A DNA stretch of 64,000 nucleotides from a virus (Duplodnaviria > Caudoviricetes), in the IMG/VR virus record IMGVR_UViG_3300002930_000508, positions 4,482 to 68,481 of that record. One strand, 5' to 3'. The notes under the pieces were generated by a model, which was given only the letters and a program-made list of their open reading frames with translations, did not search any database and was not told the DNA's origin. This document shows positions 14,701-43,542 of the stretch, piece after piece. The position numbers and the translations under genes are program-made. The stretch's first letter is position 1; each line of letters opens with the position of its first letter.

Positions 14701-17700
14701 TTGACGGCGTTCGTGGCGGTGTAATGCCTGATGGCACAGTCTTTATTGTGGCTAATAATCACGCTGATGTTAAAGACGTTGAGCGTACACTGGCGCACGA
14801 AATTACTGGTCACTTGGGTGTTGAGGGTGTACTTGGGCAGGCTGGTATGGATGCGCTTGCTAAGAAGGTTATCGCTCAAAACGGTAGCGTAGCTGCGTTG
14901 GCTGATAAGTTAGGTGTTGGAGAAGAAGCCCTTGCCGCTTACATGGCTGCTAAACAAGCTGGCAAATCTGAAGAGTTTGCGCAGGCTAAAGCCTTACGTG
15001 AGGTTATCGCCCATACTGCTGAAGCTAGACCTGACAAAAACTTTATTCAGAAAGCTAATGACTTTATCAAGGCTTTGGTTGGTGCGTTCCGTGCTGCCTT
15101 GCGTAAAATGGGCATTGACTTAGACATTAGCACGTCTGATATTTACAAACTACTTCGTGACGCCCGCAAGTCTGAAAAGATTGCTCCCGGTATCTATAAA
15201 GGGCGTGATGGTGAGTATCAATTAAAACCCGGTAAAGCTACCTATGGCCCGGGTGGTGCTGTGTTTGCTCGTGGTGCTGACTTAATGATGGCGCAGCAAG
15301 CTTCGTTAAAAGATCGTTTGTTCCCACCAAATATTGGTTTGTATTTAAAACAGAAGCTAGTTAGTGGCACCGCCAGCCTAGAACGTGTTCTTGAAGTTAA
15401 AGGCATGAAAAACTCTTTGGCAGCTAACCAACTTAGATATTACATTGCTCAACACAATCAACGCTTTACTATTGCAGGCAACGCTTTAACTATTGGTGTA
15501 CCCATGTTGCGCCAAGAGAAAGGCGGTAAGGGGCATGTACTTGAATCTAAACCCGGCGCTAATTTAAAAGGTCTTGCTGAAGTTTTAGGTAGTATCGGCT
15601 GGGGTAACGCAGAAGGTATTCGTAACGCATATAGCCTATATCGTATTAGCAAACGTGCTAAAAATGTAGGTGTAGAAAAACTAAACTTTAAAAAGCCACA
15701 AGAGATGGCAAAGATGCTAAAAGAAGTTGACGCTCTTATTAGCAACAATAAAACTTTACGTGATGGCTTTATAAAAGCAGATAAGATATACGACCAGTAC
15801 AACCGTGACTTAATGAACTTTTTGGTTCAGACAGGCGCTCTTCCTAAAAACAAAGCTATTGACCTTGTTAAAAACGATGACTATGTACCGTTCTATCGTA
15901 CGGAGCAAGACGGCACGGTAGTGCTTGATTTAGGTGGTGCTGATCGTGTTCGCATTGGTAACTTAAAAGACCAACCATATTTAAAAGAGTTAGTTGGTGG
16001 TGACGAACGCATTGTTGATATTTATACAGGCGCCTTGCAAAACACCAACATGTTGATTGATATGGCATTGCACAACCTAGCCTCTCGTAACGTGGCGTTT
16101 ACGTTAGCTGACTTGGGCTTAGTAGACTCTGTTGGTAAAACAGATATAAAAATACGTCCCGGCAAAGGCCCAGCAAGCAATAGAGTTATCCGTTTTAGTG
16201 TACAGCCTACTAATGAAAAAGACGATGGTTTCCGCCATGTTGTTGTTAATACGGATTCTACTGGCATCCCATCTCAATACTTAGTTCAAGGTCTGGCTGG
16301 CGTTAATACAAGCGTTCCATCGCTGGTCAAGAGCATGGGCTTCTTCTCTCGTACATTGCGTTCATGGGTAACTAGAAACCCAGTCTATGCGGCTCGTCAG
16401 ATTATTCGTGATCCGTTTACCGCTACTATGGCTAGTGGTGTTAATACTATTCCAGTTTTAACATCTCTTAAAGCTATGGGTAAATCCATTGGCAGAATGC
16501 GTCGTGGTGAAGTTGGTACTAGCGAGATTGAGCGCTTAGGTTTGGTAAGCAGCAACGTATTTACGGGTACGTCTGAAGACATGCAAAAAATTCTGTTACA
16601 GATTACTAGTGGTAAGAGTGGTTGGGAATCTTACTTGGCTAAAGCTGACGCTTTGGCAGCGCAAGGTGATGCGGCTACTCGTGAAGTTGCTTTCAATAGT
16701 TTCCGTAAACAAGGCTTATCTGAAATGGAAGCAGCGTTGGCTACTTATGAAACAATGCCGTTTACCCAGCGTGGTACATCATCTAGCTTGTTCTTGCTAT
16801 CCACAATGGTGCCTTTCCTTAACGCGCAGATTCAAGGTTTGAACGTGCTGTACAACGCGTTTACAGGAAAAGCTACTTTCCAAGAGAAGTTACGCATTAA
16901 ACAAAAACTATGGCAGCGTGGCATGATGATGTTCGGTATGTCTATGGCTTACGCCCTGTTAATGAGCGATGACGAGGCTTACCAAAATGCTAACGATGAC
17001 GAGCGTTACAACAACTGGTTTGTATATGTGCCGGGTATTGATGAACCAGTTCGCGTGCCTATCCCATTTGAATTAGGTCTTCCATTCAAAGCATTACCGG
17101 AAGCTATTGTTAACGTAATGCGTGGTGATAGAACCGCTGGCGAAGCCGTAAAAGCCTTGAGCAAGATGGTTCAAAACTCTGTACCGCTTGGTCCTACCTC
17201 TATACCGCAGGCTGTTAAAGCCCCGCTTGAAGTTATTGCTGACTATTCGTTCTATACAGGGCGTGGTATTGTTGGTGATCGCCTTGCTGGTGTTGACCCT
17301 TCCGAGCGATTTAATGCTAACACATCTGAGCTAGCTAAGTTTATTGGCAAAGGCACAGGCCAAATTCCATTCTTTGGCGAATACTTATCACCTGTTCAGC
17401 TTGAGTATATGGTTCGTGGGTATACAGGTAGCTTGCCTTTGGCGCTTGCTTCTATGGCTAACCCGTTATTTGGCAGTGCTGCCGGTGAAAAACCAACCTC
17501 TCGTGCAAGTGAAATGCCTATCGTTGGGTCGTTATTCCAACCAAAAAATGCAAGCGGTCTTATCAATCGTGCGTACAAAGATATGGAAGCTATTAACCGT
17601 GCCGGTCAAACCTACAAAAAAATGGATGAAGAGGGGCGCACAAAAGAAGCCGATGCTTACGCAGATCGCTTTGCAGATGAATTAAGTCTTGCTCCGTTAG

Positions 17701-17858
17701 CTGGTGCGTTCAAACAAAAAATGGGCGAATTGGCTAGAGACGAACGTGAAATTAAATCTGACCCTAACCTATCAGGTCCTGAAAAACGCCGTCAGCTTGA
17801 TGAAATTCGTAAAGAAAGAATTGAATTATCTAAAGAACTTATCAGCGAACGCGAGTAA
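8769..17858 (+). CDS. Giant ejection / polyvalent protein with zincin-like HExxxH motif and LPD38-like C-terminal domain
   Basis: 3029 aa; long K/E/A-rich coiled coil; TLAHEITGHLG near 14790-14815; NWFVYVPG...RVPIPFELG near the C-terminus. Confidence 0.7.
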   Translation: MPYLRLPDGSYMDVPEGVSQREALTHAQEKYKDLYRPAEKPDTGLTGAAKASYQTLKGDLAAVAGKTGLMDIGEAEKYQKERQAEAQRIYKPTEESWSEAPFLKARELLGGSLPYMAAPVAVGAAAALGGAPVAAGAGLAGLASGLQFTGSNLSRQMDTGKELKDTDLMAAGAAAIPQAALDVVGFKFLPGVQRIFKSAGVELSEQAAKKIVEAGTLKTVGQYAAGGTKIAGIEGATEAGQQFFERLQAGLNIADTEARKEYLESFVGGAVLGGIASPFGVAGKRGEAKDVIAKAQLKRDEDAAAAEEARKQSPEYRAQLESQRNEIQGRITQIQSVLKDPRLDKEAVDEGKTEIKALQAQLKGLVGELKTAGAPAEETQAFSIDQAIAERKAQEEQEAAKNEQAQKVKENEHGFIKEHQGLTSTVDYLQTKLQSAMKNGDVRQTEVFGDLLDKKTAELSQLSDLAQRAGINVRTPEAQLKTANTVLKKAQNQLMVASENADLTPDKRKELVQSIKDAQAKVDELNAQVSKNTEQNAASQALAQKQQERLQGPVKWNKKTQKFELLSDEEIEQPIDMAEYELKANEMTNNRLAGLGAAASERQRSFGEMDTVQQLATEIDQGKLFNTSAKLLGLSTNAGKNGNWSFADPKEASLLLKEVTKKLDEIEKDRATAEQHKMDLPADPRTPYLEQLVEKLQETAAVEPGVLPKSKVESRRDLRYQQDKIPAAQKLFKPNLPVGEYTPTHIAKVREELAEVNRLLGYDEQHEANKAAEKTRLNKVIKKAKATIASKTATEANKKAAQQAITTAEAEKKRLDNEKVGVSEGVDLTANKKKALAEIEANIKAQQAILNSKESSEKDKYWAKDRIEKLNVAKKSHSNLKAPQQSEFLERLKKRKARLENEILDATLPLRAKGKAPKHLRIESDIETLENQLKQATAPSEIKRLQNRIANAHTKLAKVKKTSRLPEGGASGERVVGARKESEALTEIQDAIDQLRKGEFIGGAASDETNLEGQSRPLILRGIRNDVDTLVMAAISDINIGRRSWGDPDMTTAEQEEFATAVEQMLLSKAARATGWRAELQRAPETAEETAISKAFKDAGFNFGNKTAQEQYIEAIGKAGLTDEDIVENYGEANKQIEQIRNNLDTLIDKKNDLEDKINTASDRTVISTYKKQIDRLTASIKEANKAYAAAKAEFVKGEKEGKGEIRTGMRETERVDIREAISKLKQSFGSERAKHIEEREITADAMPKIESEPKEVAKLRDTANSFLESTRGILRGLGEALRILTPVEVRKSKAILDDFNKKKQTALDFMRDIGAGKEETNSFFSKVIEATKKEKEAAEAELEANAAEAENKTTGDKLINKSLRRKANKLRDQADAMHADIAADVNKVVEQVKETIAVAEGAAKEKLGADFKQFFDQLKANNTDYLEASRAYQAARDEYYTKKRAEAGAARVEQEGTDKERTAKSIKKGEQEARQKVGLNLSGKKVEAVVTQTVLSNLAFNNMSKKVTVMRKLFNAIDAAKNDVLKSENERAAAVAKAKEAYADEVIKTRKYAERESFGIRPGELGDLFIQLAKVESGSPEGKAVLKDIATIRRTAEEDAARMGIVQRKKKEVGPEGSFDYEDKLKGIQAEQTEETRRKIERRKNAVTNKQRKKMQEEVQKELDIANAKELKKTPEGATAAQKKTINVANDKIRIARQSLQAQLDVITGADFDVLRNRGRIKKEASDRLYKKSKFESARDNELNRVLKKKDLIETKATGAKLKPADEKFLEKNGQELTEDEETLLKKADALGKDAAGHIEERATEHKKAVVIAEINLQKPLSEEEKFVKTTAGKNQVERLKHAKGRTKEKILNDEFKRAVKELDAVREGYEAVGLTEAEFKKYVTKAEEQKLNAWENEFEDAKIDFDDFKGLHEGMQGDWDPRIEKPITGEGVSSSVVQRAVDKLKLPKGLKVLVLEKLTPTLRGAIAEGGYTDTEIDGVRGGVMPDGTVFIVANNHADVKDVERTLAHEITGHLGVEGVLGQAGMDALAKKVIAQNGSVAALADKLGVGEEALAAYMAAKQAGKSEEFAQAKALREVIAHTAEARPDKNFIQKANDFIKALVGAFRAALRKMGIDLDISTSDIYKLLRDARKSEKIAPGIYKGRDGEYQLKPGKATYGPGGAVFARGADLMMAQQASLKDRLFPPNIGLYLKQKLVSGTASLERVLEVKGMKNSLAANQLRYYIAQHNQRFTIAGNALTIGVPMLRQEKGGKGHVLESKPGANLKGLAEVLGSIGWGNAEGIRNAYSLYRISKRAKNVGVEKLNFKKPQEMAKMLKEVDALISNNKTLRDGFIKADKIYDQYNRDLMNFLVQTGALPKNKAIDLVKNDDYVPFYRTEQDGTVVLDLGGADRVRIGNLKDQPYLKELVGGDERIVDIYTGALQNTNMLIDMALHNLASRNVAFTLADLGLVDSVGKTDIKIRPGKGPASNRVIRFSVQPTNEKDDGFRHVVVNTDSTGIPSQYLVQGLAGVNTSVPSLVKSMGFFSRTLRSWVTRNPVYAARQIIRDPFTATMASGVNTIPVLTSLKAMGKSIGRMRRGEVGTSEIERLGLVSSNVFTGTSEDMQKILLQITSGKSGWESYLAKADALAAQGDAATREVAFNSFRKQGLSEMEAALATYETMPFTQRGTSSSLFLLSTMVPFLNAQIQGLNVLYNAFTGKATFQEKLRIKQKLWQRGMMMFGMSMAYALLMSDDEAYQNANDDERYNNWFVYVPGIDEPVRVPIPFELGLPFKALPEAIVNVMRGDRTAGEAVKALSKMVQNSVPLGPTSIPQAVKAPLEVIADYSFYTGRGIVGDRLAGVDPSERFNANTSELAKFIGKGTGQIPFFGEYLSPVQLEYMVRGYTGSLPLALASMANPLFGSAAGEKPTSRASEMPIVGSLFQPKNASGLINRAYKDMEAINRAGQTYKKMDEEGRTKEADAYADRFADELSLAPLAGAFKQKMGELARDEREIKSDPNLSGPEKRRQLDEIRKERIELSKELISERE

Positions 17859-31947: not shown

Positions 31948-32144
31948 GCATCCTCCTTACCATAGCGTCTGCGTACGTCGTCAATCCTTTGCAAACATGC
32001 TACTATTTTGTGAAGTTGTTGCTCAACGATTTGTTCTTCGTGTACACGATGTGCTTTGAGCGCAACAATAACCTCGGCTTCAAGATTACATAGTGCGGCG
32101 TTCTCACGCATCATCAATAGGATTTCACTTTCCGACATAGGCAT
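31944..32144 (-). CDS. Hypothetical protein (66 aa)
   Basis: Operon-coupled ORF. Confidence 0.55.
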   Translation of the reverse strand: MPMSESEILLMMRENAALCNLEAEVIVALKAHRVHEEQIVEQQLHKIVACLQRIDDVRRRYGKEDA

Positions 32145-32424
32145 GCTTTATCTCCTCTAAAAAGTTTCTACCTTTTTCTGTTAATGTTAGTTCGTTGGCA
32201 CGTCTATCGGGTTTAGCAACTTTTTCTTGCACAAACTTCTTGGCAACAACTCTCTTAAGATACTTGTGCGTTGTCGCTTGTGACATGACGTTCTCTGCCT
32301 CAGCAATCTTGAACACACCAGTCGTGGATAGCGGTGCTTCTTTGCCTACCATACCGATGATGTATTCGTCTTGCCATCCGATTCGATTCTTAAAACGTAA
32401 TGCCTGTGTTTCATATGCGTTCAC
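32125..32424 (-). CDS. MarR-like winged-helix DNA-binding protein
   Basis: MSQATTHKYLKRVVAKKFV...PDRRANELTLTEKG matches the MarR DRR...LT.KG wing. Confidence 0.75.
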   Translation of the reverse strand: MNAYETQALRFKNRIGWQDEYIIGMVGKEAPLSTTGVFKIAEAENVMSQATTHKYLKRVVAKKFVQEKVAKPDRRANELTLTEKGRNFLEEIKHAYVGK

Positions 32425-32732: not shown

Positions 32733-33623
32733 TTAGAAACTGAACTTGGATAAGATGTCATCGACTTGCGTCTTAACATCTGTGCGTGCGCCTACGTCCT
32801 TGCGTAAGTCCTTAACATCAATACCGCCGATGGCTTTCTTCAATGCCTTGCGTGCCTCGTCTAACTGTGGGTCATTGATTATATTCAAACTGCTAGCCAA
32901 GTCACACAAATCATGCGCACCTTCTAGCAACGAGTCGTGGAACTTGCGAGGCTTAGCCTCACCACTAACATAGTCAATAGACAGGCGGTCAGACATACGC
33001 TTCAGGTGCTCGAGTAATCTACCCTTGATGTCCTTCATTGCGTGGTCAACACGCTCATCAGCTAGGCTTGACAACTTCTTGCGGAGTTCTTCTTGCGCAT
33101 CATTACCGATGTCTACCCTAAAGTCACCCGATGCAGGCACAGGCATGTAGTTCACATTGAAGCGGAACCGATGCTCGATGTCATTAGGGTTAGGGTAGTC
33201 GGTGCGGTTGAACATGTCGCCCAATGCCATAGCTTGTGCAGTAATCAGCGATGGGTAGACTTGTACGAACTCGGTGACTAAGCCATAGAACGTATCTTCT
33301 GCGTGTTGTAGCTTGGTATTAAATTCCATGAACTTAACGCTAGGTAGTAGACGGATACCTGAGTCACTCCACGGCAACGTGTTGTCGTATACCATGTCCC
33401 TAGTCTGTGTTACGAACTTGCTGATAACTTCCAACTCGTTACGACCAGCGAGCAAGTGTTTGTTTACACGAGCCGCACCCTTGTTCTGCGCTTGCTTATT
33501 GGCAACTAGCTCGTCTGATACTGAGCGGTCTAGCTTGCGTGCAGTCCATTGTGATACGTTTAATTCTACCAACATAGCGCATGTGTCAATGGAGTACCTA
33601 GCCATTTTAATTTCTGTGTTCAT
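32733..33623 (-). CDS. DUF3150-like protein
   Basis: MLVELNVSQWTARKLD, NTLPWSDSGIRLLP and YP...FRF motifs; linked to AAA and VWA genes. Confidence 0.55.
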   Translation of the reverse strand: MNTEIKMARYSIDTCAMLVELNVSQWTARKLDRSVSDELVANKQAQNKGAARVNKHLLAGRNELEVISKFVTQTRDMVYDNTLPWSDSGIRLLPSVKFMEFNTKLQHAEDTFYGLVTEFVQVYPSLITAQAMALGDMFNRTDYPNPNDIEHRFRFNVNYMPVPASGDFRVDIGNDAQEELRKKLSSLADERVDHAMKDIKGRLLEHLKRMSDRLSIDYVSGEAKPRKFHDSLLEGAHDLCDLASSLNIINDPQLDEARKALKKAIGGIDVKDLRKDVGARTDVKTQVDDILSKFSF

Positions 33624-34096
33624 AACTTCTCCTTCGTTCTGTTGTTTACTTGTTTACGTGGGGGTGTTGTCAATGCCTTCTCTAGACTCCACCCTTTGCG
33701 AACCCTTGCTTTATATAAGCCGTAGGTTATGCCTGTCTTTCGACACCAATCGCTTATGCACATTGTTTCGTTACCTATGCGTGTTGGCTTGGCTCTCCTA
33801 CTATTAATGTTTTGCGCACTTGTTGATGCCCATTGGCAGTTGCTTGGGCTATACCCCCTATCGTTGTTACGCCTATCAAGTGACATGCCTTTCGGTCTGT
33901 CACCCATATCAGCGTAGAAGTTTTCAAAAGAAAGCCACCGCTTACAAACAGTAATACCCCTGCCCCCGTAGTCTACATAGCGTGGGTTGTTTGGGTTGGT
34001 ACATCTTTGCTTCATGTTTTTCCACACGCCGTAGATACTGGGGTAGTGTCTAGCGTTGTGCTTTCCTGCTGTCATGCCGTGTGACTTAGCTGGCAT
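33620..34096 (-). CDS. HNH-type homing endonuclease
   Basis: WKNMKQRC...YGGRGITVC..W..FENFYADMG..P...SLDR.NND.GYSP.NC.W. Confidence 0.85.
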   Translation of the reverse strand: MPAKSHGMTAGKHNARHYPSIYGVWKNMKQRCTNPNNPRYVDYGGRGITVCKRWLSFENFYADMGDRPKGMSLDRRNNDRGYSPSNCQWASTSAQNINSRRAKPTRIGNETMCISDWCRKTGITYGLYKARVRKGWSLEKALTTPPRKQVNNRTKEKL

Positions 34097-35322: not shown

Positions 35323-36438
35323 TTATTTGGTTGAGAAGTAAATCTTGTTGTCTTGCATCAATACTTGGAACGGCTTAACAGTCACAAACAATGCGGCACG
35401 AGTAGAGTTAGCGATGTTGTTAGCGAACATGCTTTGTAGTTCTCTTCTGTTACGCATGACATACTCGGTGCATGCCTCGGCTTCTTCTCTGTTGGAAGTT
35501 TGTGTAACGCATTTCAATACAGTAATGATCTGCGCTACTGGATTGCTAGGGATAGGGCATGTTGAAGGCGATGAGATAATTTTAGAGAAGGGTGGTGTCT
35601 CATCACCGAAGCGAATGAACGCACCCATAACCTCTGACCCTGCACGACCGACAGTACCCTCGAGTAGACCCTGCAACGTATCAGTATCTAGGAACTCACG
35701 CTCTTTGATGATGTCGCTAGCTGAGTGTAGTGAGCGTGGAGTGATGTAAGCCTGTTGAGATAACAACGGATTGAAGATAACGTCATTCTCCTTAGACTGA
35801 TCACGACCTGCATACTTACCGCCATCTTGATAGTCAAGGAAGCTATCGAACCATTGTGGATTCTCGTTGGTACATGCTAGCAAGATAGGGTCAATGCCGT
35901 TCTCGATACCCCAGTTATACCACTCAGTCTGCGTAGGTTTGCGCATGGTAAGAAAGACTAAGCGATTACGCAAGTGAGCCTGTATTGAATCGCCTAGACC
36001 CTCGACCGCAAGGTTAGTACCAGCGAATACCACAGAACCCTCAGCCATCTCGTAGTTACCAACAGCACGCTCGTACACAATCGGAGCAAGCACGTCTTTG
36101 ATGTACTGCTTAGCCTTAGCCAACTCGTCAAGGAATACTAGCGATGGGCGTGCGCCGTTGATACCTCGTTGGTTGGTCTTGCTAACACCGAAGCGCTCGT
36201 TAGGTAACTCACGACTAACACCTGCGTCACGATCAATGTCAGGCATCCACACAGAACCATCAGACATCTGAGTACAGTCGAGCTTGACACCGATATGGTT
36301 AGCGAAGAACGGGTCACGCTCAAGCGTGTGATAGATACCAGTCTTACCGATACCGTTCTCACCTTGAACAATGATGGTGCGCTTGTGACCAATCATCTTG
36401 ATAGCGTTTGCAACTTGTAATGAATTAAGTAATTTCAT
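35323..36438 (-). CDS. MoxR-like AAA+ ATPase
   Basis: GENGIGKT, VFLDEL, AGTN, LRNR and TPRS motifs. Confidence 0.88.
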   Translation of the reverse strand: MKLLNSLQVANAIKMIGHKRTIIVQGENGIGKTGIYHTLERDPFFANHIGVKLDCTQMSDGSVWMPDIDRDAGVSRELPNERFGVSKTNQRGINGARPSLVFLDELAKAKQYIKDVLAPIVYERAVGNYEMAEGSVVFAGTNLAVEGLGDSIQAHLRNRLVFLTMRKPTQTEWYNWGIENGIDPILLACTNENPQWFDSFLDYQDGGKYAGRDQSKENDVIFNPLLSQQAYITPRSLHSASDIIKEREFLDTDTLQGLLEGTVGRAGSEVMGAFIRFGDETPPFSKIISSPSTCPIPSNPVAQIITVLKCVTQTSNREEAEACTEYVMRNRRELQSMFANNIANSTRAALFVTVKPFQVLMQDNKIYFSTK

Positions 36439-36463
36439 GGTGCTTATATCCTCGTTTGATTGT

Positions 36464-36479
36464 GGGAACTTTTGTTCCC
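36464..36479. promoter_or_regulatory. Palindromic operator box (1 mismatch)
   Basis: GGGAACTTTTGTTCCC. Confidence 0.75.
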
Positions 36480-36504
36480 GTTGTTTTAGTACTGCTTTTT
36501 AGAA

Positions 36505-36532
36505 AGTATAACATACTGCTTTATAGAAACAA
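36505..36532 (-). promoter_or_regulatory. Sigma70-like promoter (extended -10) for the AAA-VWA operon
   Basis: TTGTTT-16bp-TATACT with TGn upstream of the -10; operator box lies between it and the GAGG RBS. Confidence 0.6.
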
Positions 36533-36539
36533 CAACTAC

Positions 36540-37529
36540 TTACTCTCCTTTCTTATTGGCTCGGGTGTAATAAGTTCTCGGCAACGTGTTGCCAAACTGT
36601 GGTAGGGGTACGGATTGGCTACCCTTAGATAGACCAGCGAACGACATCAGCCTAGCTACTAGGGATTTCTTGAACTCCTCGGGGGTGATGCTAGCCACGA
36701 TGTCATCAGCTTTCTCTTGTGCATCATCAGCATCGGCAGGGTTGCGTGACCTAGCCCAACCACTCATCTTGCGGAACAGACTGCCGTCATCAGCGGTGTA
36801 TATCTTCTTGCTAGCTAGCATATCGAAGCAGTCCTGCGCTACCTCATCGAAGGTTTCCATGAACGACTGTGACTCAAGGGGTAGGGGTCGGTGGGTAAGG
36901 GCATCACGCATGGTTGCTTGAATTGTGTACCCTAAGCGGTTCTCACCGAACGGCGCACCCATAGACTGATCTAGTCTGACGTTATCTCGTAGCGTGGGTA
37001 GCTTGAACATCTGAAGCGTGACGTAGGCATCAAGTTCTTTCTTGAGATCCTTGCGTGTTTGCTTGTCATCAGAGGTTGAAGCTAAGCGGTATATGTCAGC
37101 GTGCCATGACTTTTCTATCACTAGCCTATCTTCCTTATCAAATACCAACAACGCAGAGAAGTCCTTGCCCTGATCTTTGTAGTATGGGTTGAGCGGCACC
37201 TTGACTGTATCACCTGTTGTGGTAGTCAAACCTTTGCCGTTGTAATACCCTGTGAACTTGTATTGCAGTTGAATATCGAACGTGCCGTATAAACCAATGA
37301 CTGCCACCTCATACTCACCCTCTGCGTTGGGTTCATATATGCGAACGACATCTACGCCGTTGATCTTATACACATAGCTGTGCGCATCTTTCTGAAGCAT
37401 TAAATGCGCTTCGCTTACTCGTCTTAAAGGTCTTTGATACTCGTTGTATTTCTTACTGCGTGGTGGCTTCTTGGTGTTGGTGAATTGCTCGTGTGCTTGT
37501 TGGTATGTTAATGTTGTGTAGTAGTTCAT
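36540..37529 (-). CDS. Hypothetical early protein (329 aa)
   Basis: GAAGGAG RBS; long ORF. Confidence 0.75.
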   Translation of the reverse strand: MNYYTTLTYQQAHEQFTNTKKPPRSKKYNEYQRPLRRVSEAHLMLQKDAHSYVYKINGVDVVRIYEPNAEGEYEVAVIGLYGTFDIQLQYKFTGYYNGKGLTTTTGDTVKVPLNPYYKDQGKDFSALLVFDKEDRLVIEKSWHADIYRLASTSDDKQTRKDLKKELDAYVTLQMFKLPTLRDNVRLDQSMGAPFGENRLGYTIQATMRDALTHRPLPLESQSFMETFDEVAQDCFDMLASKKIYTADDGSLFRKMSGWARSRNPADADDAQEKADDIVASITPEEFKKSLVARLMSFAGLSKGSQSVPLPQFGNTLPRTYYTRANKKGE

Positions 37530-38194
37530 GCTAGTGCTCCTTCGTTGGTAAAGTGATAGTCATTGCAGTTAAAGTGGTCAAGCATCATCTCTTCGCTACA
37601 TAGGTACTCGTACTCTTGTTTCAACCTATCGTATATATCTTTGGCGTACTCCCTTCCTGATTCGGTTATTGCTTTGGTTAGTTCTTCTGTTGATTTGATG
37701 TGGCAGTTATCGTCTGAGGCGATGATGTCGTATAGGTGCTGAACTTCCATACCCTTAAAGATAGACGGCAACTCCATCAGCCAGTCATCGGTGAACTCAT
37801 CGGTGTGGTCTTCTACATCGCCGAACTGCATCGTGCTCTCATGGCAGTAGTGCGAGTTGTTGGCGGTGACTTTACTATGTTTGCTAACCACATCTTCTTG
37901 GATAAGCTGACACCACGCACTCAACCCTATGCTGTCCTTCTCATGCGTCTCGAGCCATTGCCTTACATCAACCTGACCTATCCAGCTAGCGCCATCGCCT
38001 TGTGAGTGAAAGCCTGAGAAGAATATCTTGTCGATATAAAAACCTACCTCTTTGCCGTCCTCGACAGCCATCTCGTAAGTGCCTTCCCACCACTCGTAGT
38101 CCATGCCATCGATATACCAGTTGCGTGCCTTTTCTTTGGCTTGGTCGGACAACTCGCCATACTTAAATACTTCTACTTCAATCGTCTTGCTCAT
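37526..38194 (-). CDS. Hypothetical acidic early protein (222 aa)
   Basis: YGELSDQAKEKARNWY...FSGFHSQGDGA; GGGGG RBS. Confidence 0.75.
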   Translation of the reverse strand: MSKTIEVEVFKYGELSDQAKEKARNWYIDGMDYEWWEGTYEMAVEDGKEVGFYIDKIFFSGFHSQGDGASWIGQVDVRQWLETHEKDSIGLSAWCQLIQEDVVSKHSKVTANNSHYCHESTMQFGDVEDHTDEFTDDWLMELPSIFKGMEVQHLYDIIASDDNCHIKSTEELTKAITESGREYAKDIYDRLKQEYEYLCSEEMMLDHFNCNDYHFTNEGALA

Positions 38195-38203
38195 ATACCC
38201 CCC

Positions 38204-38767
38204 TTAATTAAATTCGACCTTGATACTTGCCTCACTTAACTTCTCTGCAACGACGTCTTCCAACTTGTCCTCGACCTGATCACGCACGATGTCATCAATC
38301 TGATCACTAACGGCATCATTCACCGCATCATTGAAGTCAAAGTGATCTGATGGGTCAAAGCGGTGGTCAAAGTAGGACTCGACCTCATCCTCCACAACAG
38401 ATTCCACAGCGTCTTTAGCTAGGTCTTCTATGCCTGCGCCTATGAGTTCGTGCCGTATCAAGTCCTTAAACCAGTCTGCTTGTTGTAGTGTGAGTGAGAG
38501 GGTTTCTTGTAGCGTGGGAACATTTGTTTCCGTTTCGGGTTGGGCTTTAGCTTGGCTGATGACCGTAGTAAGAAGTTGAAGCTGAGTGCATATGTTGTTG
38601 ATGATGGTGGGTAAGTCAGGGTTTGGGGTAGGTTGTGGTTCGGGTGCGTGTTGTGTTTGCATGATGTTTTGTATTACCTCCTTGGTTTCTTTTGGTACCT
38701 CGGGTGCATTGAGGTGGTCGGTTAGTGGTTGTGTTGGTGTTAGTTCTTGTAGTGTGAATGTGGTCAT
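38204..38767 (-). CDS. Hypothetical acidic early protein (187 aa)
   Basis: GAAGGAG RBS; very Asp/Glu-rich C-half. Confidence 0.7.
   Translation of the reverse strand: MTTFTLQELTPTQPLTDHLNAPEVPKETKEVIQNIMQTQHAPEPQPTPNPDLPTIINNICTQLQLLTTVISQAKAQPETETNVPTLQETLSLTLQQADWFKDLIRHELIGAGIEDLAKDAVESVVEDEVESYFDHRFDPSDHFDFNDAVNDAVSDQIDDIVRDQVEDKLEDVVAEKLSEASIKVEFN
38516..38531. promoter_or_regulatory. Palindromic operator box (1 mismatch, intragenic)
   Basis: GGGAACATTTGTTTCC. Confidence 0.6.
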
Positions 38768-38769
38768 GG

Positions 38770-38949
38770 TTACTCTCCTTCGGTGATTAAATGGATGATG
38801 ATGTTGTGTGGTTCAGTTGGGCTGAGATATTCTTTGAACTCCATTACTAAGTCAGCGTCAGCCATGCACTCGTAATGCGCCTGCCATGATTCAAGTAGGC
38901 GTTCGGTTATGGTTTCTCGGTCGATGGTTATTACTTCTTTCTCACTCAT
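38770..38949 (-). CDS. Hypothetical protein (59 aa), not in the ORF track
   Basis: Translated by hand as MSEKEVITIDRE...HLITEGE; GGAG RBS and ATGA overlap. Confidence 0.65.
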   Translation of the reverse strand: MSEKEVITIDRETITERLLESWQAHYECMADADLVMEFKEYLSPTEPHNIIIHLITEGE

Positions 38950-39398
38950 GCTGTTTCTCCTATCGCTTGGTTGAACTGCTCGGATACATCTACTTCTACT
39001 TCGTCACTACCATGTTTGGGGTTGATGGTTACCCATGCGCCTGTTGCCCCGATGGATATGCGTTCGCTACCTATGTTTCCCCAGCCATCGTCTGTATAAC
39101 AATCAATGCCTGTGTTAAAGACAATAGAAGTAGCGCCATCTAACGACTTGATAATGCCCCTCGCCATCTTGTATTGCAGAATCATGTCGTCTTTGATGGT
39201 GACATTGATGTAGTCGGGTAGGTCAGAGTATTCGCTGTTGGTATACATATCTTCGGTGAACTCCACCTTAACGCCGCTAGCTTCTTGGTTTACCAACGCC
39301 CATGCTTCTTGCCACTCTTCGTCATCTTTGTTGGTGTCGTCAGCGAGCCACTCGTTGTTGTTGTGGTGGAAATACCTGTATTGAATTGTGTTAGGCAT
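38946..39398 (-). CDS. Hypothetical early protein (150 aa)
   Basis: GGAG RBS; coupled ORF. Confidence 0.7.
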   Translation of the reverse strand: MPNTIQYRYFHHNNNEWLADDTNKDDEEWQEAWALVNQEASGVKVEFTEDMYTNSEYSDLPDYINVTIKDDMILQYKMARGIIKSLDGATSIVFNTGIDCYTDDGWGNIGSERISIGATGAWVTINPKHGSDEVEVDVSEQFNQAIGETA

Positions 39399-39594
39399 TG
39401 TTTTCTCCTTGTCTAGTGGTTTGTGCTACTTGTTGCTGAGTAATGTCGTTGATGTAGGTGCTGACCATATTTAGCACCTCTCGCTTGGCATCTCGATACT
39501 CTGATGCGTCAAGCATTGCTTGTATCTCATCTACTGATTTGCCTAGCTTGTGCATGGTGATTACTGCTTGGGCTACGCCCTTCATTGAACTCAT
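39391..39594 (-). CDS. Hypothetical early protein (67 aa)
   Basis: GGGGG RBS. Confidence 0.65.
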   Translation of the reverse strand: MSSMKGVAQAVITMHKLGKSVDEIQAMLDASEYRDAKREVLNMVSTYINDITQQQVAQTTRQGENNA

Positions 39595-39603
39595 ACACCC
39601 CCC

Positions 39604-39711
39604 TTAATTTAAAAACCAATGAAGCCCAGCACGAACTATCTGAGCCACCATAAAGAACAAAACTAAATACAACACAACCCATACATACTTATCTTCGTCC
39701 ATCCACTTCAT
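39604..39711 (-). CDS. Single-TM membrane micro-protein (35 aa), not in the ORF track
   Basis: Translated by hand as MKWMDEDKYVWVVLYLVLFFMVAQIVRAGLHWFLN; ATGA overlap. Confidence 0.55.
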   Translation of the reverse strand: MKWMDEDKYVWVVLYLVLFFMVAQIVRAGLHWFLN

Positions 39712-40355
39712 GCTACACCTACCTTTCTTCGTTTGATTAACTCGTTTATCTTTACATCTGTGGGAACATTTGTTCCCGTTTTTGCCTGCTCCATTAGGTC
39801 TTGCCTAATTCGTTTCGCCTCTGCGTAGTTGTAGCTATGTTGATCTAGCATGGCGTGTTGTTGGGGTGTCGATTGCTCGGGCATTTGGTTTTTGTATGAG
39901 TAATAGCGGTTGGCGTAGTGCGTGACTTGGCTTTGTAGGTTCGCCTTTAGTATTTCAATCCAGCCCTCTCGTTTCTTCTGCCAATATTCTTTCATTACCT
40001 TGCTCCGTCTTCGTGGTATCGCTTCGGTTTTTTGCTTGACGAGGTTCTCGCCCAGCACTTTGTTCATATCACCTGACACCATCTTGTTTTTGATTTCTTG
40101 GATGGATAGTGGTGTGCGTCGTTTGGTTTGTAGTCTGCACTCAGCACAGTTCTTTGAGGTGGCGGTGTAGGGTGAGTTGATCTTGGGGTTGTTTAATACT
40201 GCTCGACTCTGTGCGAGGGTGAGTCTGCGTCTGAAATCTTTGCTCGGCTTTTCCTCACCGCAGGTTGCACAGGTTTTGGTTTTGGGAACATTTGTTCCCG
40301 TTTTGTTGAGTACGGTCATCAGGTTCTTTCTCGTTTTTGGACAATAGTCCACCAT
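39708..40355 (-). CDS. C4 zinc-finger early protein (true start may be MTVLNK at 40319)
   Basis: CATC...CAEC; two KTGTNVP segments encoded by operator boxes. Confidence 0.7.
   Translation of the reverse strand: MVDYCPKTRKNLMTVLNKTGTNVPKTKTCATCGEEKPSKDFRRRLTLAQSRAVLNNPKINSPYTATSKNCAECRLQTKRRTPLSIQEIKNKMVSGDMNKVLGENLVKQKTEAIPRRRSKVMKEYWQKKREGWIEILKANLQSQVTHYANRYYSYKNQMPEQSTPQQHAMLDQHSYNYAEAKRIRQDLMEQAKTGTNVPTDVKINELIKRRKVGVA
39762..39777. promoter_or_regulatory. Palindromic operator box (perfect, intragenic)
   Basis: GGGAACATTTGTTCCC. Confidence 0.75.
40284..40299. promoter_or_regulatory. Palindromic operator box (perfect, intragenic)
   Basis: GGGAACATTTGTTCCC. Confidence 0.75.
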
Positions 40356-40638
40356 TTAATAGGAGGTGGACACACAAGTGGACACCCGCTAGAGTATATA
40401 CCATAAGGGTTGGAGTAATAGTATGCCCAACTGTATACGAGCGACAGAGTTTTATTAAAGTAACTAAATCTTTCAAGTCTAAACCTCTGTCCATCTTTTA
40501 CTCTCTTATTATTATGTATTTGTATCTCTTTATATATATACATATAGGTTGACTCTGGGTCGATGCCATATACCGCTTGGGTTAGCGGGTGTCCACTTAG
40601 TGTCCATGTGTAGTGAAAAGGTGGACTATTGTCCAAAA
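40335..40638. repeat. Symmetric inverted-repeat element around an AT-rich core (candidate origin)
   Basis: Perfect 19-bp IR 40335-40353/40620-40638 and perfect 16-bp IR 40376-40391/40583-40598. Confidence 0.85.
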
Positions 40639-40688
40639 TGGTATTTAAGAGGGGTTCTCCACAACACGTTGCAGAGAACCCGTTGAGT

Positions 40689-40704
40689 GGGAACATTTGT
40701 TCCC
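40689..40704. promoter_or_regulatory. Palindromic operator box (perfect, intergenic)
   Basis: GGGAACATTTGTTCCC. Confidence 0.8.
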
Positions 40705-40711
40705 GATTTGG

Positions 40712-40927
40712 TCATGCCCACTTAGCACGAGCAAGGGCAACAGTAGTAGTGATGAACCACCCGTTGTTGTTGTCATACCCGTTGCTTGCACCGCCTAGCT
40801 TACGCCAAGCATTAGTGGCTGTCTTGAGGTGGTTGTGTAGCTTCATTGTGCCTTTCGGTGTGCGTTGGAATGAAGTGATAAGTCCGTTTTCTTTGTAGAT
40901 AACAGCGTATGCGGTAGGTAAGTTCAT
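40712..40927 (-). CDS. Hypothetical early protein (71 aa)
   Basis: GAAGGAG RBS. Confidence 0.7.
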   Translation of the reverse strand: MNLPTAYAVIYKENGLITSFQRTPKGTMKLHNHLKTATNAWRKLGGASNGYDNNNGWFITTTVALARAKWA

Positions 40928-41124
40928 GCTGATACTCCTTCGTTGGTTGGTTGGTTAAAGCGGATACATGGACTGCTACTGCTGAACCTTAGATACAAGC
41001 GAGTGCATAGCCCATATCGTTTATTGCCTGACACCATAAGCATCGGGCGTTTGATTGCCTTGCGTGTGTAGCGGTGTTTGGGTAGGCATTGCGCCTTCCA
41101 TGAGTGTTGGATACTAGATAACAT
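40924..41124 (-). CDS. Hypothetical basic early protein (66 aa)
   Basis: AAGGAG RBS. Confidence 0.6.
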   Translation of the reverse strand: MLSSIQHSWKAQCLPKHRYTRKAIKRPMLMVSGNKRYGLCTRLYLRFSSSSPCIRFNQPTNEGVSA

Positions 41125-41135
41125 ACAGCAACTCC

Positions 41136-41291
41136 TTAGTTTTTATATTCACAGATTAGGTTCTCGCCGTCCCATACTTGAACGAAACGGCAGGACTTAC
41201 ACAGCAAATCAAATAGTTCAAAAGCGTCTACTTGACTCTCTGCTTTATACCAACGGCTTGCTGACTGATGCTCGATTTTGATTTGATACAT
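41136..41291 (-). CDS. Hypothetical early protein (51 aa)
   Basis: Start reassigned to MYQIKIEH, behind a GAAGGAG RBS. Confidence 0.7.
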   Translation of the reverse strand: MYQIKIEHQSASRWYKAESQVDAFELFDLLCKSCRFVQVWDGENLICEYKN

Positions 41292-41316
41292 GGTGATACT
41301 CCTTCGATTGATTAGA

Positions 41317-41381
41317 TTGGACAACAAACAGAACCGCAGAGAAGCCTCGCTTGCTTGACCAACCCTGCAAGTTCTGTCCAA
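41317..41381 (-). other. Long interrupted intergenic stem-loop (candidate RNase III-type processing site)
   Basis: Nested pairings TTGGACA/TGTCCAA, GAAC/GTTC, GCAG/CTGC and AAGC/GCTT. Confidence 0.4.
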
Positions 41382-41405
41382 TGTGTTTGAGACAACTGTC
41401 CCCGA

Positions 41406-41813
41406 TTACTTAATGATGCGTAGAAACTTAGCTTGCTCTGCCTTGCTCAATGCTTCGAACTTAACAACGAGTTGCTCAACAGCGTCAACCTGCTTACTAA
41501 CCTTGCCGTTGCCCTTCTGCTTCTTAACATTGTGATACACACCTACATTGCGTTGCCATTGGCGTGTTGCCGTATCGTGTCTGCTCTCCCTTGTGCAAGC
41601 CTCGTCAGAGTAGAAATACCAAGAGCCTGTGCTACTCTGTTGGAAGTAGATAGTTTCCCGATACTTCTCTCCGTAAGCCTCGGCATGAGCCTGAGCCAAT
41701 GACTCCACAACATCTTCCGACAAGAATTTCTTCTTACCTAAAGCGGTTGCCAAAGCGTCAGCCCATGCGAGTTTGCTAGATACAAATGATTTGTATGATG
41801 TGATTAAAGACAT
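41406..41813 (-). CDS. First early protein (135 aa)
   Basis: Start reassigned to MSLITSYK, behind a GGAG RBS. Confidence 0.75.
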   Translation of the reverse strand: MSLITSYKSFVSSKLAWADALATALGKKKFLSEDVVESLAQAHAEAYGEKYRETIYFQQSSTGSWYFYSDEACTRESRHDTATRQWQRNVGVYHNVKKQKGNGKVSKQVDAVEQLVVKFEALSKAEQAKFLRIIK

Positions 41814-41834
41814 AGTAATTCTCCAAAAGAAAAC

Positions 41835-41850
41835 GGGAACATTTGTTCCC
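41835..41850. promoter_or_regulatory. Palindromic operator box (perfect) just upstream of the first early RBS
   Basis: GGGAACATTTGTTCCC. Confidence 0.8.
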
Positions 41851-42377
41851 ATTGATAGACACACAGCGATGTGTGATCGAGAACCAATCTCGATGATTAA
41901 ATGTACCATTCCGTAGGCTTTTTCAGGCTTTCATCACCCCACCCGATACCCACCAACCCGTTTAGTGGTCAGGCATGCTTGGACCATAGATCACTGTTCC
42001 TCAGCCACAAAATAAAAAAATGTCAAATCTTGTAAAAACCCAAATTAAATCAACGCCTTACAAACGCAAAGTGCATGAAATTTTAATAAAAAATTAACCG
42101 ACCCGTGTCAAATTCTAGACAACAAACCCCAGCCTATAGGTATCAAATAGCACACCTAATTCCAACCTATAGGTATTAAAAAGATATACAAATTTCGGAC
42201 AACGATGTCTTATTTTTGCATGAATTTTTCTATACATTTCAAGCATTTAACGCACTTATTTTTTAAATAACATAGTCAATGTTAAAACAATAACAAAGCA
42301 AATAAAAAAGTTTCCCGAACGGGAAAAATGTACGAAAAAGTGGGCAAAAATAGGAAAAAGTGCGTGATCGGGAAATT

Positions 42378-42430
42378 TTGTAAAGAAAAGTAAAAAGATT
42401 GTAAAGAAAAGTAAAAAGATTGTAAAGAAA
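42378..42430. repeat. Tandem 21-bp repeat, about 2.5 copies
   Basis: TTGTAAAGAAAAGTAAAAAGA at 42378 and 42399, partial copy at 42420. Confidence 0.9.
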
Positions 42431-42434
42431 CGCA

Positions 42435-42540
42435 ATGTCAACCAAAGTGCGCATAAACCCCAGAACATGTACGTAATGTCAACCAAACTGCACATACCCC
42501 CACAACATGTCAACCAAAGCGCACATACGCCAAACATGTT
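42435..42540. repeat. Three imperfect ~31-bp direct repeats
   Basis: ATGTCAACCAAA-nn-GCRCATA cores at 42435, 42476 and 42507. Confidence 0.85.
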
Positions 42541-42570
42541 TACAAAACTGCAAAAAATCGACATATAAAA

Positions 42571-42628
42571 TGTTGCAGTGCAACAAATTGTGTAATATAC
42601 TACACAAACCGTGACTCATAAATGAGTC
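42571..42628 (+). promoter_or_regulatory. Sigma70-like promoter overlaid by three palindromes
   Basis: TTGCAG(42573)-17bp-TATACT(42596); TGTTGCA-G-TGCAACA, TTGTGTA-N6-TACACAA and GACTCAT-AA-ATGAGTC. Confidence 0.7.
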
Positions 42629-42652
42629 CATAACCCACTTAAGGAGTTTTAT

Positions 42653-42787
42653 ATGATCCATTCTGAATTTGAAAAGCAGTACAAAAATTATGAGCAGGCA
42701 GTAGAGCGGGTAGTTCAAGCCTACGAGTTTTGGTTTCATTCCATCATCTCAACCGCAAAAACTTATTTAGCCCAAAAAACTAAATAG
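42653..42787 (+). CDS. 44-aa amphipathic helical micro-protein, not in the ORF track
   Basis: AAGGAG RBS; translated by hand as MIHSEFEKQYKNYEQAVERVVQAYEFWFHSIISTAKTYLAQKTK. Confidence 0.75.
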   Translation: MIHSEFEKQYKNYEQAVERVVQAYEFWFHSIISTAKTYLAQKTK

Positions 42788-42788
42788 T

Positions 42789-42818
42789 AAAAAAACCCCC
42801 ACGTCTTAGGTGGGGGTT
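42789..42818. terminator. Intrinsic terminator hairpin (U-tract stronger on the minus strand)
   Basis: A7-CCCCCAC-GTCTTAG-GTGGGGG-TT. Confidence 0.65.
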
Positions 42819-42957
42819 CAAACGAGGATGTACTAAGCATCAACCAAGGCCCAAACGAAGGAGGAAAAGCCTAGGTAAACAAAGTATACACAAAAACCTA
42901 AAAACAATATACAATCACCTCAACCGTGAACACCACACGCAACCAAAGGGGAAATAG

Positions 42958-43542
42958 TTGTTTTTAGAACACTTAGTCACAGCGCACGCAGCAGACTACA
43001 CACCAGATCTTTTACAAGATCAAACCCCCTTTACCCCAACCAACGACCTTACCCCAGCGCAAACACTCAGCGCACAAAAGAAAACATCCGACTGGCTAAG
43101 CCAGTTTGACGAAGAAGATAACGCCACACTCACAGAAGCACAACAAGAAAAAACCGCCGACGCGTTCAATGCTCTAGTTCGCTCTGACCCCCACGCAAAA
43201 CAAAAGCTACTACAGCTAGACCTGCCAGAAGAAATAAAAGCTGCCGTTGGTATGGTGACTGCTTATCAGTGGAAGTTTGTCGAGCAAGCAGAAGAGCTCA
43301 GAAGCATGGCGGTAAGCCACATTGTTAAAGAAATACAACATCCAGATGCGCGCATACGCTTAAAAGCTCTTGAAATGTTGGGTAAAGTAACCGAGGTAGC
43401 GTTGTTCACCGACAGAATCGCAGTAAAAAATGAAGAAGTGAGTGATGAGGAATTGGACGCTCGCATTAAAGAAAAACTAGGCCGCTACATGGGCGTGGTT
43501 GATGTTGTAGATGTCGAAGAAGTGCCTGAGAGAAGCGAATGA
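42958..43542 (+). CDS. Putative terminase small subunit
   Basis: TTG start; helical RIRLKALEMLGK; overlaps the TerL start. Confidence 0.6.
   Translation: MFLEHLVTAHAADYTPDLLQDQTPFTPTNDLTPAQTLSAQKKTSDWLSQFDEEDNATLTEAQQEKTADAFNALVRSDPHAKQKLLQLDLPEEIKAAVGMVTAYQWKFVEQAEELRSMAVSHIVKEIQHPDARIRLKALEMLGKVTEVALFTDRIAVKNEEVSDEELDARIKEKLGRYMGVVDVVDVEEVPERSE

Follow-up and report, generated by a model that had tools for sequence, protein, structure and literature searches.

The early region described here lies in a stretch of phage DNA of 64,000 nucleotides (hereafter the window), which corresponds to bases 4482-68481 of a 68,481-bp IMG/VR virus record (IMGVR_UViG_3300002930_000508) that is rated complete and originates from an uncultured freshwater phage. 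The genes from 42739 down to 18020 are located on the minus strand and make up the early and replication modules; the late module, encoded on the plus strand, begins with the genes for terminase (43539) and portal protein (45080). A 16-bp palindrome, GGGAACA-TT-TGTTCCC (GGGAACATTTGTTCCC), is repeated in the early region, and one of its copies directly precedes the first early gene, gp1, the product of which is most likely, as far as comparison with related phages can tell, the protein that reads the whole set. The features in question are as follows, in the order in which they would be transcribed:

42009-42036, minus strand: sigma-70-like early promoter (TTTACA-16-TATTTT), conserved in relatives.
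41851-42008, minus strand: conserved leader of about 160 nt with a G-rich block, running into site 1.
41835-41850: site 1, a perfect palindrome that comes after the early promoter and the leader; a T-rich run follows it.
41406-41813, minus strand: gp1, the first early gene, 135 amino acids, proposed reader of the palindromes.
40689-40704: site 2, a perfect palindrome, 8 nt past the stop codon of a gene for a 71-amino-acid protein (40927-40712).
40335-40638: an origin-like inverted repeat of 304 bp with an AT-rich core (tatatgtatatatataaagag...) and three TGGACA(C) units per arm.
40284-40299: site 3, a perfect palindrome 20 nt into the zinc-finger gene, where it codes for G-T-N-V-P.
39762-39777: site 4, a perfect palindrome in the 3' tail of the zinc-finger gene (QAKTGTNVPTD), with the next ATG 51 nt downstream.
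38516-38531: site 5, one mismatch, in the middle of the gene for an acidic protein of 187 amino acids, in a variable linker (ETETNVP).
36464-36479: site 6, one mismatch at the innermost arm position, in the 5' untranslated region of the AAA-ATPase operon.

The original prediction had counted four perfect copies and two copies with one mismatch, and the recount agrees with it: perfect copies are present on the plus strand at 39762, 40284, 40689 and 41835, and copies with a single mismatch, likewise on the plus strand, at 36464 (GGGAACtTTTGTTCCC) and 38516 (GGGAACATTTGTTtCC). The number of matches expected by chance was 0.05, as estimated from dinucleotide-preserving shuffles, none of which (0 of 100) reached 10 strand-matches. 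The claim that the copies are restricted to 36464-41850 holds for the entire 68,481-bp genome, where no further copy with three or fewer mismatches was detected outside this span. Fourteen positions of the palindrome are invariant among the copies. All six sites also share the orientation of the centre (AAAT on the sense strand), which is probably not meaningful because both orientations occur in related phages.

With regard to their location, two of the sites occupy operator-like positions, as had been proposed. Site 1 ends 10 nt before the GGAG of gp1, the ATG of which (41813) lies 22 nt downstream, and site 6 is situated between a promoter-like site (TTGTTT-16-TATACT, 36532-36505) and the GAGGA/ATG (36438) of the AAA-ATPase gene, that is, at about +17 to +32 from the former. 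The three copies at 40284, 39762 and 38516 were correctly described as intragenic and resemble stoperators in this respect.

The genome and related phages were then scanned for the motif, as the original prediction had suggested. An exact-pattern scan of IMG/VR yielded several contigs with two to five copies of the GGGAACA palindrome each, and all of them proved to be syntenic relatives of the window phage. The loci of relatives were collected via similarity of the AAA protein. Many phages whose AAA protein is 90-95% identical to that of the window phage have no GGGAACA site; instead, they carry three to nine near-identical copies of another palindrome in the same early region of about 6 kb. 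Eleven palindrome classes were seen in total, the GGGAACA class included. Those with the 7-2-7 layout are GGGGACA-NN-TGTCCCC, GGAGAGA-NN-TCTCTCC, TGTGTGA-NN-TCACACA, GGACGGA-NN-TCCGTCC and TGGGACA-NN-TGTCCCA; those with a 7-3-7 layout are GTGGACA-NNN-TGTCCAC, GAGGACA-NNN-TGTCCTC, GCAGACA-NNN-TGTCTGC and GTGCAGA-NNN-TCTGCAC; and one class, GGGGTGCT-N-AGCACCCC, has a single-base spacer, so that the spacer measures one, two or three bases across classes. Below, classes A, B, J and F refer to the half-sites GGGAACA, GGGGACA, TGGGACA and GTGGACA, respectively, and the window phage belongs to class A. In four contigs of 42-59 kb examined besides the window, the palindromes of the relatives are likewise confined to 4-5 kb and occur nowhere else. 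The GGGAACA/TGTTCCC arms are fixed among relatives, including the innermost positions A7 and T10, and only the central two base pairs vary (AT, AA, TT, CT, CC and others), in both orientations.

At several places the palindrome has been exchanged in situ. The flanks are conserved and only the 16 bases differ at the site preceding gp1 (L146, L162, L144, L152), at the site after the stop codon of the ...AKWA* reading frame (L144, L162, L152, L148, L146, L151), at the two sites in the zinc-finger gene and at the site in the gene for the 187-amino-acid protein (L146, L162, L152, L148, L151). When the window is compared with L144, four sites can be matched by their flanks, and all four are switched in palindrome. 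Within a genome, the copies are identical at 16 of 16 bases despite unrelated flanks. Since they differ between close relatives, a sequence-specific trans-acting reader encoded by the phage itself has to be assumed. The intragenic copies dictate the peptide that is encoded, namely G-T-N/F-V-P in classes A and B and G-E-N-S-L-P or G-R-E-I-S-P in class C, and the change from class A to class B inside genes is synonymous (GGA to GGG, GTT to GTC). As the peptide follows the palindrome, and as these peptides sit in otherwise variable linkers, selection acts on the nucleotide sequence. The palindrome set is real and functional, and the earlier claim of a single dimeric regulator is upheld insofar as the six sites form one functional set of the early region, probably served by one symmetric reader. 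As a separate observation, lone class-C palindromes (GGAGAGAATTCTCTCC) were encountered at L158:5329, L165:6488, L150:4199, L143:6450 and L153:3533, in genomes that themselves belong to class A, E, F, I or J. The same downstream module (aacaagtagcacaaac...) accompanies three of these palindromes, hence regulatory sites move with gene modules between lineages.

The candidate that co-varies with the palindrome class is gp1, a protein that was not named in the original prediction. In all relatives, a copy of the palindrome lies directly before gp1 or, in one class, overlaps its 5' end. Close homologues of gp1 were gathered from IMG/VR and metagenomes, and every one of them accompanies a palindrome of the form NGG(A/G)ACA-NN-TGT(T/C)CCN. 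Among 28 unique gp1 sequences, one of the 164 alignment columns separates class A (seven sequences, Arg) from class B (15 sequences, Lys); the same column is Lys in all six class-J sequences as well, and no exception was found across 33 loci. This column, which corresponds to residue 84 in the window, tracks base pair 4 of the half-site. The codons concerned (CGC/CGT versus AAG/AAA) differ at all three bases, Arg84 of the window being encoded by CGC at 41564-41562, and the nearest relatives of the window gp1 are class-B proteins with 90% and 87% identity. In the AlphaFold2 model of gp1 (mean pLDDT 81), Arg84 falls within a predicted helix (residues 80-89, DTATRQWQRN; pLDDT 86-90), where the protein is at its most conserved and most basic. 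Positions 83 and 85, on either side of Arg84, also differ in the class-J proteins. Beyond these classes, the syntenic first gene of classes C, E, I, F, D and H gives weak matches to the gp1 profile (E-values from 4e-6 to 0.08), and the subfamilies follow the spacer, with types 1 and 3 accompanying 7-2-7 sites and type 2 accompanying 7-3-7 sites; the differences between the type 2 proteins of classes F, I and K are again found in the equivalent helix.

Taken together, these comparisons seem best accounted for by a regulator-operator pair that evolves rapidly and has an ORFan first-early protein as its regulator. We consider the chances about even that the phage encodes a symmetric (probably dimeric), lineage-specific reader to which the six palindromes belong as cognate sites; this reader would most likely be gp1, acting as a Cro-like autoregulator. 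Host RNA polymerase would start at the 42036-42009 promoter and pass the leader, and gp1 would be made first. The protein would then bind the 7-2-7 palindrome just upstream of its own ribosome-binding site (RBS) as well as the five other copies, which are distributed over gene boundaries, three linker-coding stretches, both sides of the origin-like element and the 5' untranslated region of the AAA-ATPase gene. Such binding would lower early transcription through autoregulation and roadblocks, combining a Cro-like logic with a stoperator-like layout, and the placement of site 36464 at +17 to +32 of the AAA-operon promoter fits the roadblock picture. Binding by gp1, duplex DNA as the target and repression as the effect are what we infer. 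The freedom of the centre, the conservation of A7/T10 and the indifference to orientation favour duplex DNA; a free centre, fixed arms and both orientations would be typical of a dimer on duplex DNA.

Several observations weigh against this proposal. Spacers of one to three bases and stable stems agree with a hairpin no less than with a dimer site. Several of the sites come directly after stop codons or carry T-runs and look terminator-like, and classical operator positions are held by some of the sites only. As for the co-variation with gp1, the best trees require two or three origins of class A, yet monophyly of class A on the gp1 tree was not rejected (p-AU 0.23 and 0.15), and the Arg/Lys column may for this reason partly reflect shared descent; the independent switches would be few, between one and three. 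Moreover, searches with gp1 returned no relative in Pfam, PHROG, PDB or Atlas, and at the level of the fold there was no Foldseek match in the PDB at E<=0.001, the best VIA-align Z-score being 4.5.

The original prediction had associated the palindromes with LexA and listed a host factor among the possible readers. GAAC-N4-GTTC is the core of the LexA (Cheo) box of Gram-positive bacteria and actinobacteria. The window palindrome contains GAACATTTGTTC, which matches this consensus, although the consensus may not be that of the host. The view that the palindromes are host LexA boxes of the Cheo type, placing the early region under SOS control, is supported by this fit of the core (GAACANNTGTTC) but is almost certainly incorrect. 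Phages with 90-95% identical AAA, polymerase and terminase genes have core-less palindromes (GGGGACA, GGAGAGA, GAGGACA) at orthologous places, and neither these nor the TGTGTGA and GGACGGA palindromes contain GAAC/GTTC; as the core is absent in close relatives, a conserved host factor cannot be the reader. In addition, the 14 invariant positions are far stricter than is the case in SOS regulons, and it is a phage protein, gp1, that co-varies with the sites. The changing palindromes and the co-changing gp1 residue thus speak for a regulator-operator pair that would be new, and against a LexA box of the host, and it follows for annotation that a LexA-like core in a phage is no evidence for SOS control.

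The three phage proteins that had been put forward as readers did not fare better. In the MarR-like protein (32125-32424), the recognition helix SxATTHKYL is unchanged across seven palindrome classes (A, B, C, D, I, J and K), and phages of classes A, B and C share nearly identical copies of the protein. Identity of the XRE-like 21061 protein across classes A, B, C and I amounts to 94%. The zinc-finger protein (39708-40319) is near-identical in phages of classes A, B and F, and its phylogeny crosses the palindrome classes, one group consisting of L162 (A), L152 (B) and L150 (F) and another of L146 (A), L144 (B), L151 (C) and L143 (I). Among 725 ORFs of the early region no gene family was found whose presence or absence tracks the palindrome class, nor did a whole-genome ORF comparison reveal any ORF that is tellingly nearer to the class-A genome than to class B, C or I. 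It may be added that the MarR-like protein (99 amino acids) shows 42-85% identity among relatives versus 70-90% for its neighbours, yet its predicted recognition helix is invariant; presumably, it binds some conserved site other than the palindromes.

The remaining explanations differ in what they take the palindromes to be. They could act in the early transcripts, as RNA hairpins read by gp1 or another factor and serving either N/nut-like antitermination or the processing or stabilisation of the messenger. The order promoter - leader - hairpin - first gene is that of lambda pL-nutL-N, every site is read in the sense direction within a single transcribed operon, and the predicted hairpins are stable, with stems of 6-8 bp, loops of 3-4 nt and energies of -8 to -12 kcal/mol. 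The loop stays at 3-4 nt across classes though the spacer ranges from one to three bases; many relatives have an intrinsic terminator or T-run at site 1; and the co-variation of gp1 would be equally compatible with an A-U versus a G-C pair in a stem. On the other hand, the bases of the loop are free and occur in both orientations in one genome with A7/T10 conserved, which is the opposite of what is seen with loop-reading RNA binders; variants with one mismatch give a sense-strand A-C rather than a G-U in nine of 11 cases (counted by hand); and the reading of a single base pair by an Arg or Lys of a helix is typical of B-DNA. For these reasons a role as RNA hairpins is judged unlikely. It is also conceivable that there is no dedicated reader at all, the palindromes being stem-loops of terminator/promoter cassettes that resemble the PeSL elements of T4-type phages, mark modules, aid shuffling and are homogenised by recombination. 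The highly mosaic early region agrees with this notion, as do the location of sites at gene or domain boundaries (several of them followed by -35-like hexamers of the TTG type or by RBS and ATG), the lone class-C sites, which have entered genomes of classes A, E, F, I and J together with a downstream module, and the lineage-specific consensus that PeSL stem-loops likewise display (PMC4122927). However, copies identical at 16 of 16 bases in unrelated flanks, the replacement of the palindrome in situ within conserved coding flanks and the lack of a consistent -35/-10 pair after the sites, many of which lie 3-25 nt from an RBS, all speak against it, and co-variation in a single Arg/Lys column of gp1 would be unexpected without a trans-acting reader. 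A set of elements devoid of any reader therefore seems quite improbable, while a secondary, PeSL-like role in module exchange is supported by the mosaic early region and the travelling class-C sites.

Another explanation derives from phage N4, where an injected virion RNA polymerase uses hairpin promoters: the palindromes could play this part for a polymerase hidden in the 3029-amino-acid virion protein (8769-17858). The presence of such a giant virion protein, the restriction of the sites to the early region, stems and loops of suitable size, the position of many sites 3-25 nt upstream of an RBS and ATG, and mismatch variants that favour a template-strand G-T could all be cited in its favour. 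Nevertheless, the parts of the giant protein that are conserved in its family show an HExxH-like motif and LPD38 but no polymerase signal, no phage RNA polymerase was recognised by PHROGs and Pfam in any gene scanned, the region is preceded by a conserved promoter of the sigma-70 type, and it is gp1, not the giant protein, that co-varies with the class. Hairpin promoters of this kind are accordingly regarded as very improbable. Members of the ParB/KorB family, which in the ParB-parS and KorB-OB systems go with 16-bp palindromic sites, were not detected among the proteins scanned, which represent part of the ORFs of the genome.

If gp1 is indeed the reader, the system can be compared with several known ones. 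Stoperators of Cluster A mycobacteriophages, recognised by gp71 in L5, are asymmetric 13-bp sites, mostly in one orientation, numbering about 24-30 and spread genome-wide; they are bound by a monomeric helix-turn-helix repressor of temperate phages (PMC6550527, PMC9283540). The palindromes resemble them in that many near-identical sites for one phage protein occur in short intergenic gaps and in genes, downstream of promoters, and in that the motif and the protein diverge together (here Arg84/Lys of gp1 and its subfamilies, by sequence alone). They differ from stoperators in being 16-bp palindromes of the 7-2-7 type with the centre in both orientations among relatives, in numbering six and occupying only 5.4 kb of 68.5 kb, and in that neither a helix-turn-helix nor a known fold was recognised by the searches in the candidate reader gp1 and nothing indicates lysogeny. 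With lambda Cro, gp1 would share the status of a small product of the first early gene encoded beside its own palindromic site, a lineage-specific, co-evolving specificity and unconserved central base pairs. Cro operators, however, overlap promoters and come three per control region, whereas most of the sites described here are far from promoters and some are intragenic, and the fold of gp1 is not that of Cro or another helix-turn-helix protein as far as searches tell.

The T4-type PeSL elements are likewise repeated, short, lineage-specific stem-loops, situated where small early genes adjoin one another in a mosaic and hyperplastic region (PMC2839356, PMC4122927), and in the window phage and its relatives promoter-like hexamers and a Shine-Dalgarno sequence sometimes follow, too. 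By contrast, conservation of the PeSL stems is loose, a sigma-70 promoter invariably accompanies them, and a reader has not been proposed for them; the copies reported here are identical over 14-16 bases, are also intragenic and co-vary with a protein residue. Meanwhile, the lambda N/nut boxB has in common with the palindromes the order promoter - hairpin - first gene and a phage-specific hairpin repeated in early transcripts. Recognition of boxB, which is present in two copies, is through its loop, whereas here the centre is the only variable part and three to nine copies are found. Finally, the LexA (Cheo) box CGAAC-N4-GTTCG shares the GAAC-N4-GTTC core, which in the present case is not kept in close relatives, and the reader would be phage-specific.

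The sequence preceding site 1 has features of its own. Across classes A-F and I, the leader contains a near-invariant block, GGCTGAGGAACAGTGATC ... GGTTGGTGGGTATCGGGTGGGG (41958-41937). An Rfam search of 36000-43000 gave only sub-threshold, terminator-like matches and none for the leader, which may be a structured leader or a small RNA. Some relatives have a classical terminator just before site 1; in the window, the T-run is carried by site 1 itself. Sigma-70-like sites number five in the region versus 12 in shuffles, and those on the minus strand are located upstream of site 1. Two further hairpins were noticed in the vicinity. Right after the gp1 stop codon, an element of about 70 nt (approximately 41310-41400, minus strand), TTGACAGAAC...(GC-rich interior)...GGTTCTGT(n)TGTCAA, forms a long hairpin; it is conserved in L146, L158, L162, L144, L152, L165, L161 and L153, and in relatives a copy of the palindrome lies immediately upstream of it. 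A strong hairpin resembling an intrinsic terminator, GAACCCCCAC...GTGGGGGTTTTTTT, is found at 42793-42819 on the minus strand, between the small terminase gene and the early region, with no upstream gene evident on that strand; it belongs to an AT-rich stretch of about 750 bp that is not conserved in relatives.

The 304-bp inverted repeat looks like a replication origin. It is flanked by sites 2 and 3, which lie 50 and 35 bp outside it, respectively, and the same bracketing is observed in relatives; as a possible second role, sites 40689 and 40284 may shield the origin from transcription. Its unit GTGGACA equals the half-site of class F and is similar to those of classes B, I and J. The ORF of 125 amino acids (40319-40696) that spans this repeat is probably no gene. 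Two promoter assignments were also discarded: the putative promoter TTGACAatagtc... is actually an iteron arm of the origin-like element, and the TTGACA that follows the second site in relatives is not a -35 hexamer but one arm of a larger inverted repeat.

As regards the affiliation of the phage, no DNA similarity to GenBank phages was found for the early region, gp1 or the AAA protein, and no cultured relative was present there. The terminase is about 50% identical to those of HTVC023P-type pelagiphages and some cyanophages; promoters, palindromes and RNA polymerase are not mentioned in the HTVC023P paper. In the 3029-amino-acid virion protein, the N-terminal part of about 330 and the C-terminal part of about 1100 amino acids are conserved in more than 400 homologues of 2000-3200 amino acids, and the middle 1600 amino acids are lineage-specific. 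The C-terminal part includes the HExxH-like motif TLAHEITGH and LPD38 at 2735-2919; the parts that were searched gave no PDB match and no polymerase signal. An HNH endonuclease gene (33620-34096), inserted between a metallopeptidase/VWA gene and a gene for a 296-amino-acid protein, gave no hit at E<=1e-3 when 16 related loci were compared with it by tblastn.

It is tentatively suggested, at somewhat short of even chances, that gp1 founds an undescribed family of sequence-specific nucleic-acid-binding proteins without a recognisable DNA-binding fold, in which a change of one residue could re-set the specificity, Arg84 corresponding to A-T and Lys84 to G-C at position 4 of the half-site, with operators in coding sequence and around the origin and at least 11 orthogonal pairs in widespread uncultured freshwater phages. 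In the early genes of these phages, the demands of regulatory sequence can prevail over those of the protein. Should gp1 prove to be the reader, these phages would naturally contain a series of regulator-operator pairs that are close relatives yet mutually orthogonal, and in one case the difference would come down to one residue and one base pair in each half-site. This would provide a clean system for following the joint change of a specificity and dozens of its sites, and orthogonal parts for regulation might be drawn from it. The ORFan first-early gene of these uncultured freshwater phages, an abundant group, would thereby gain a function.

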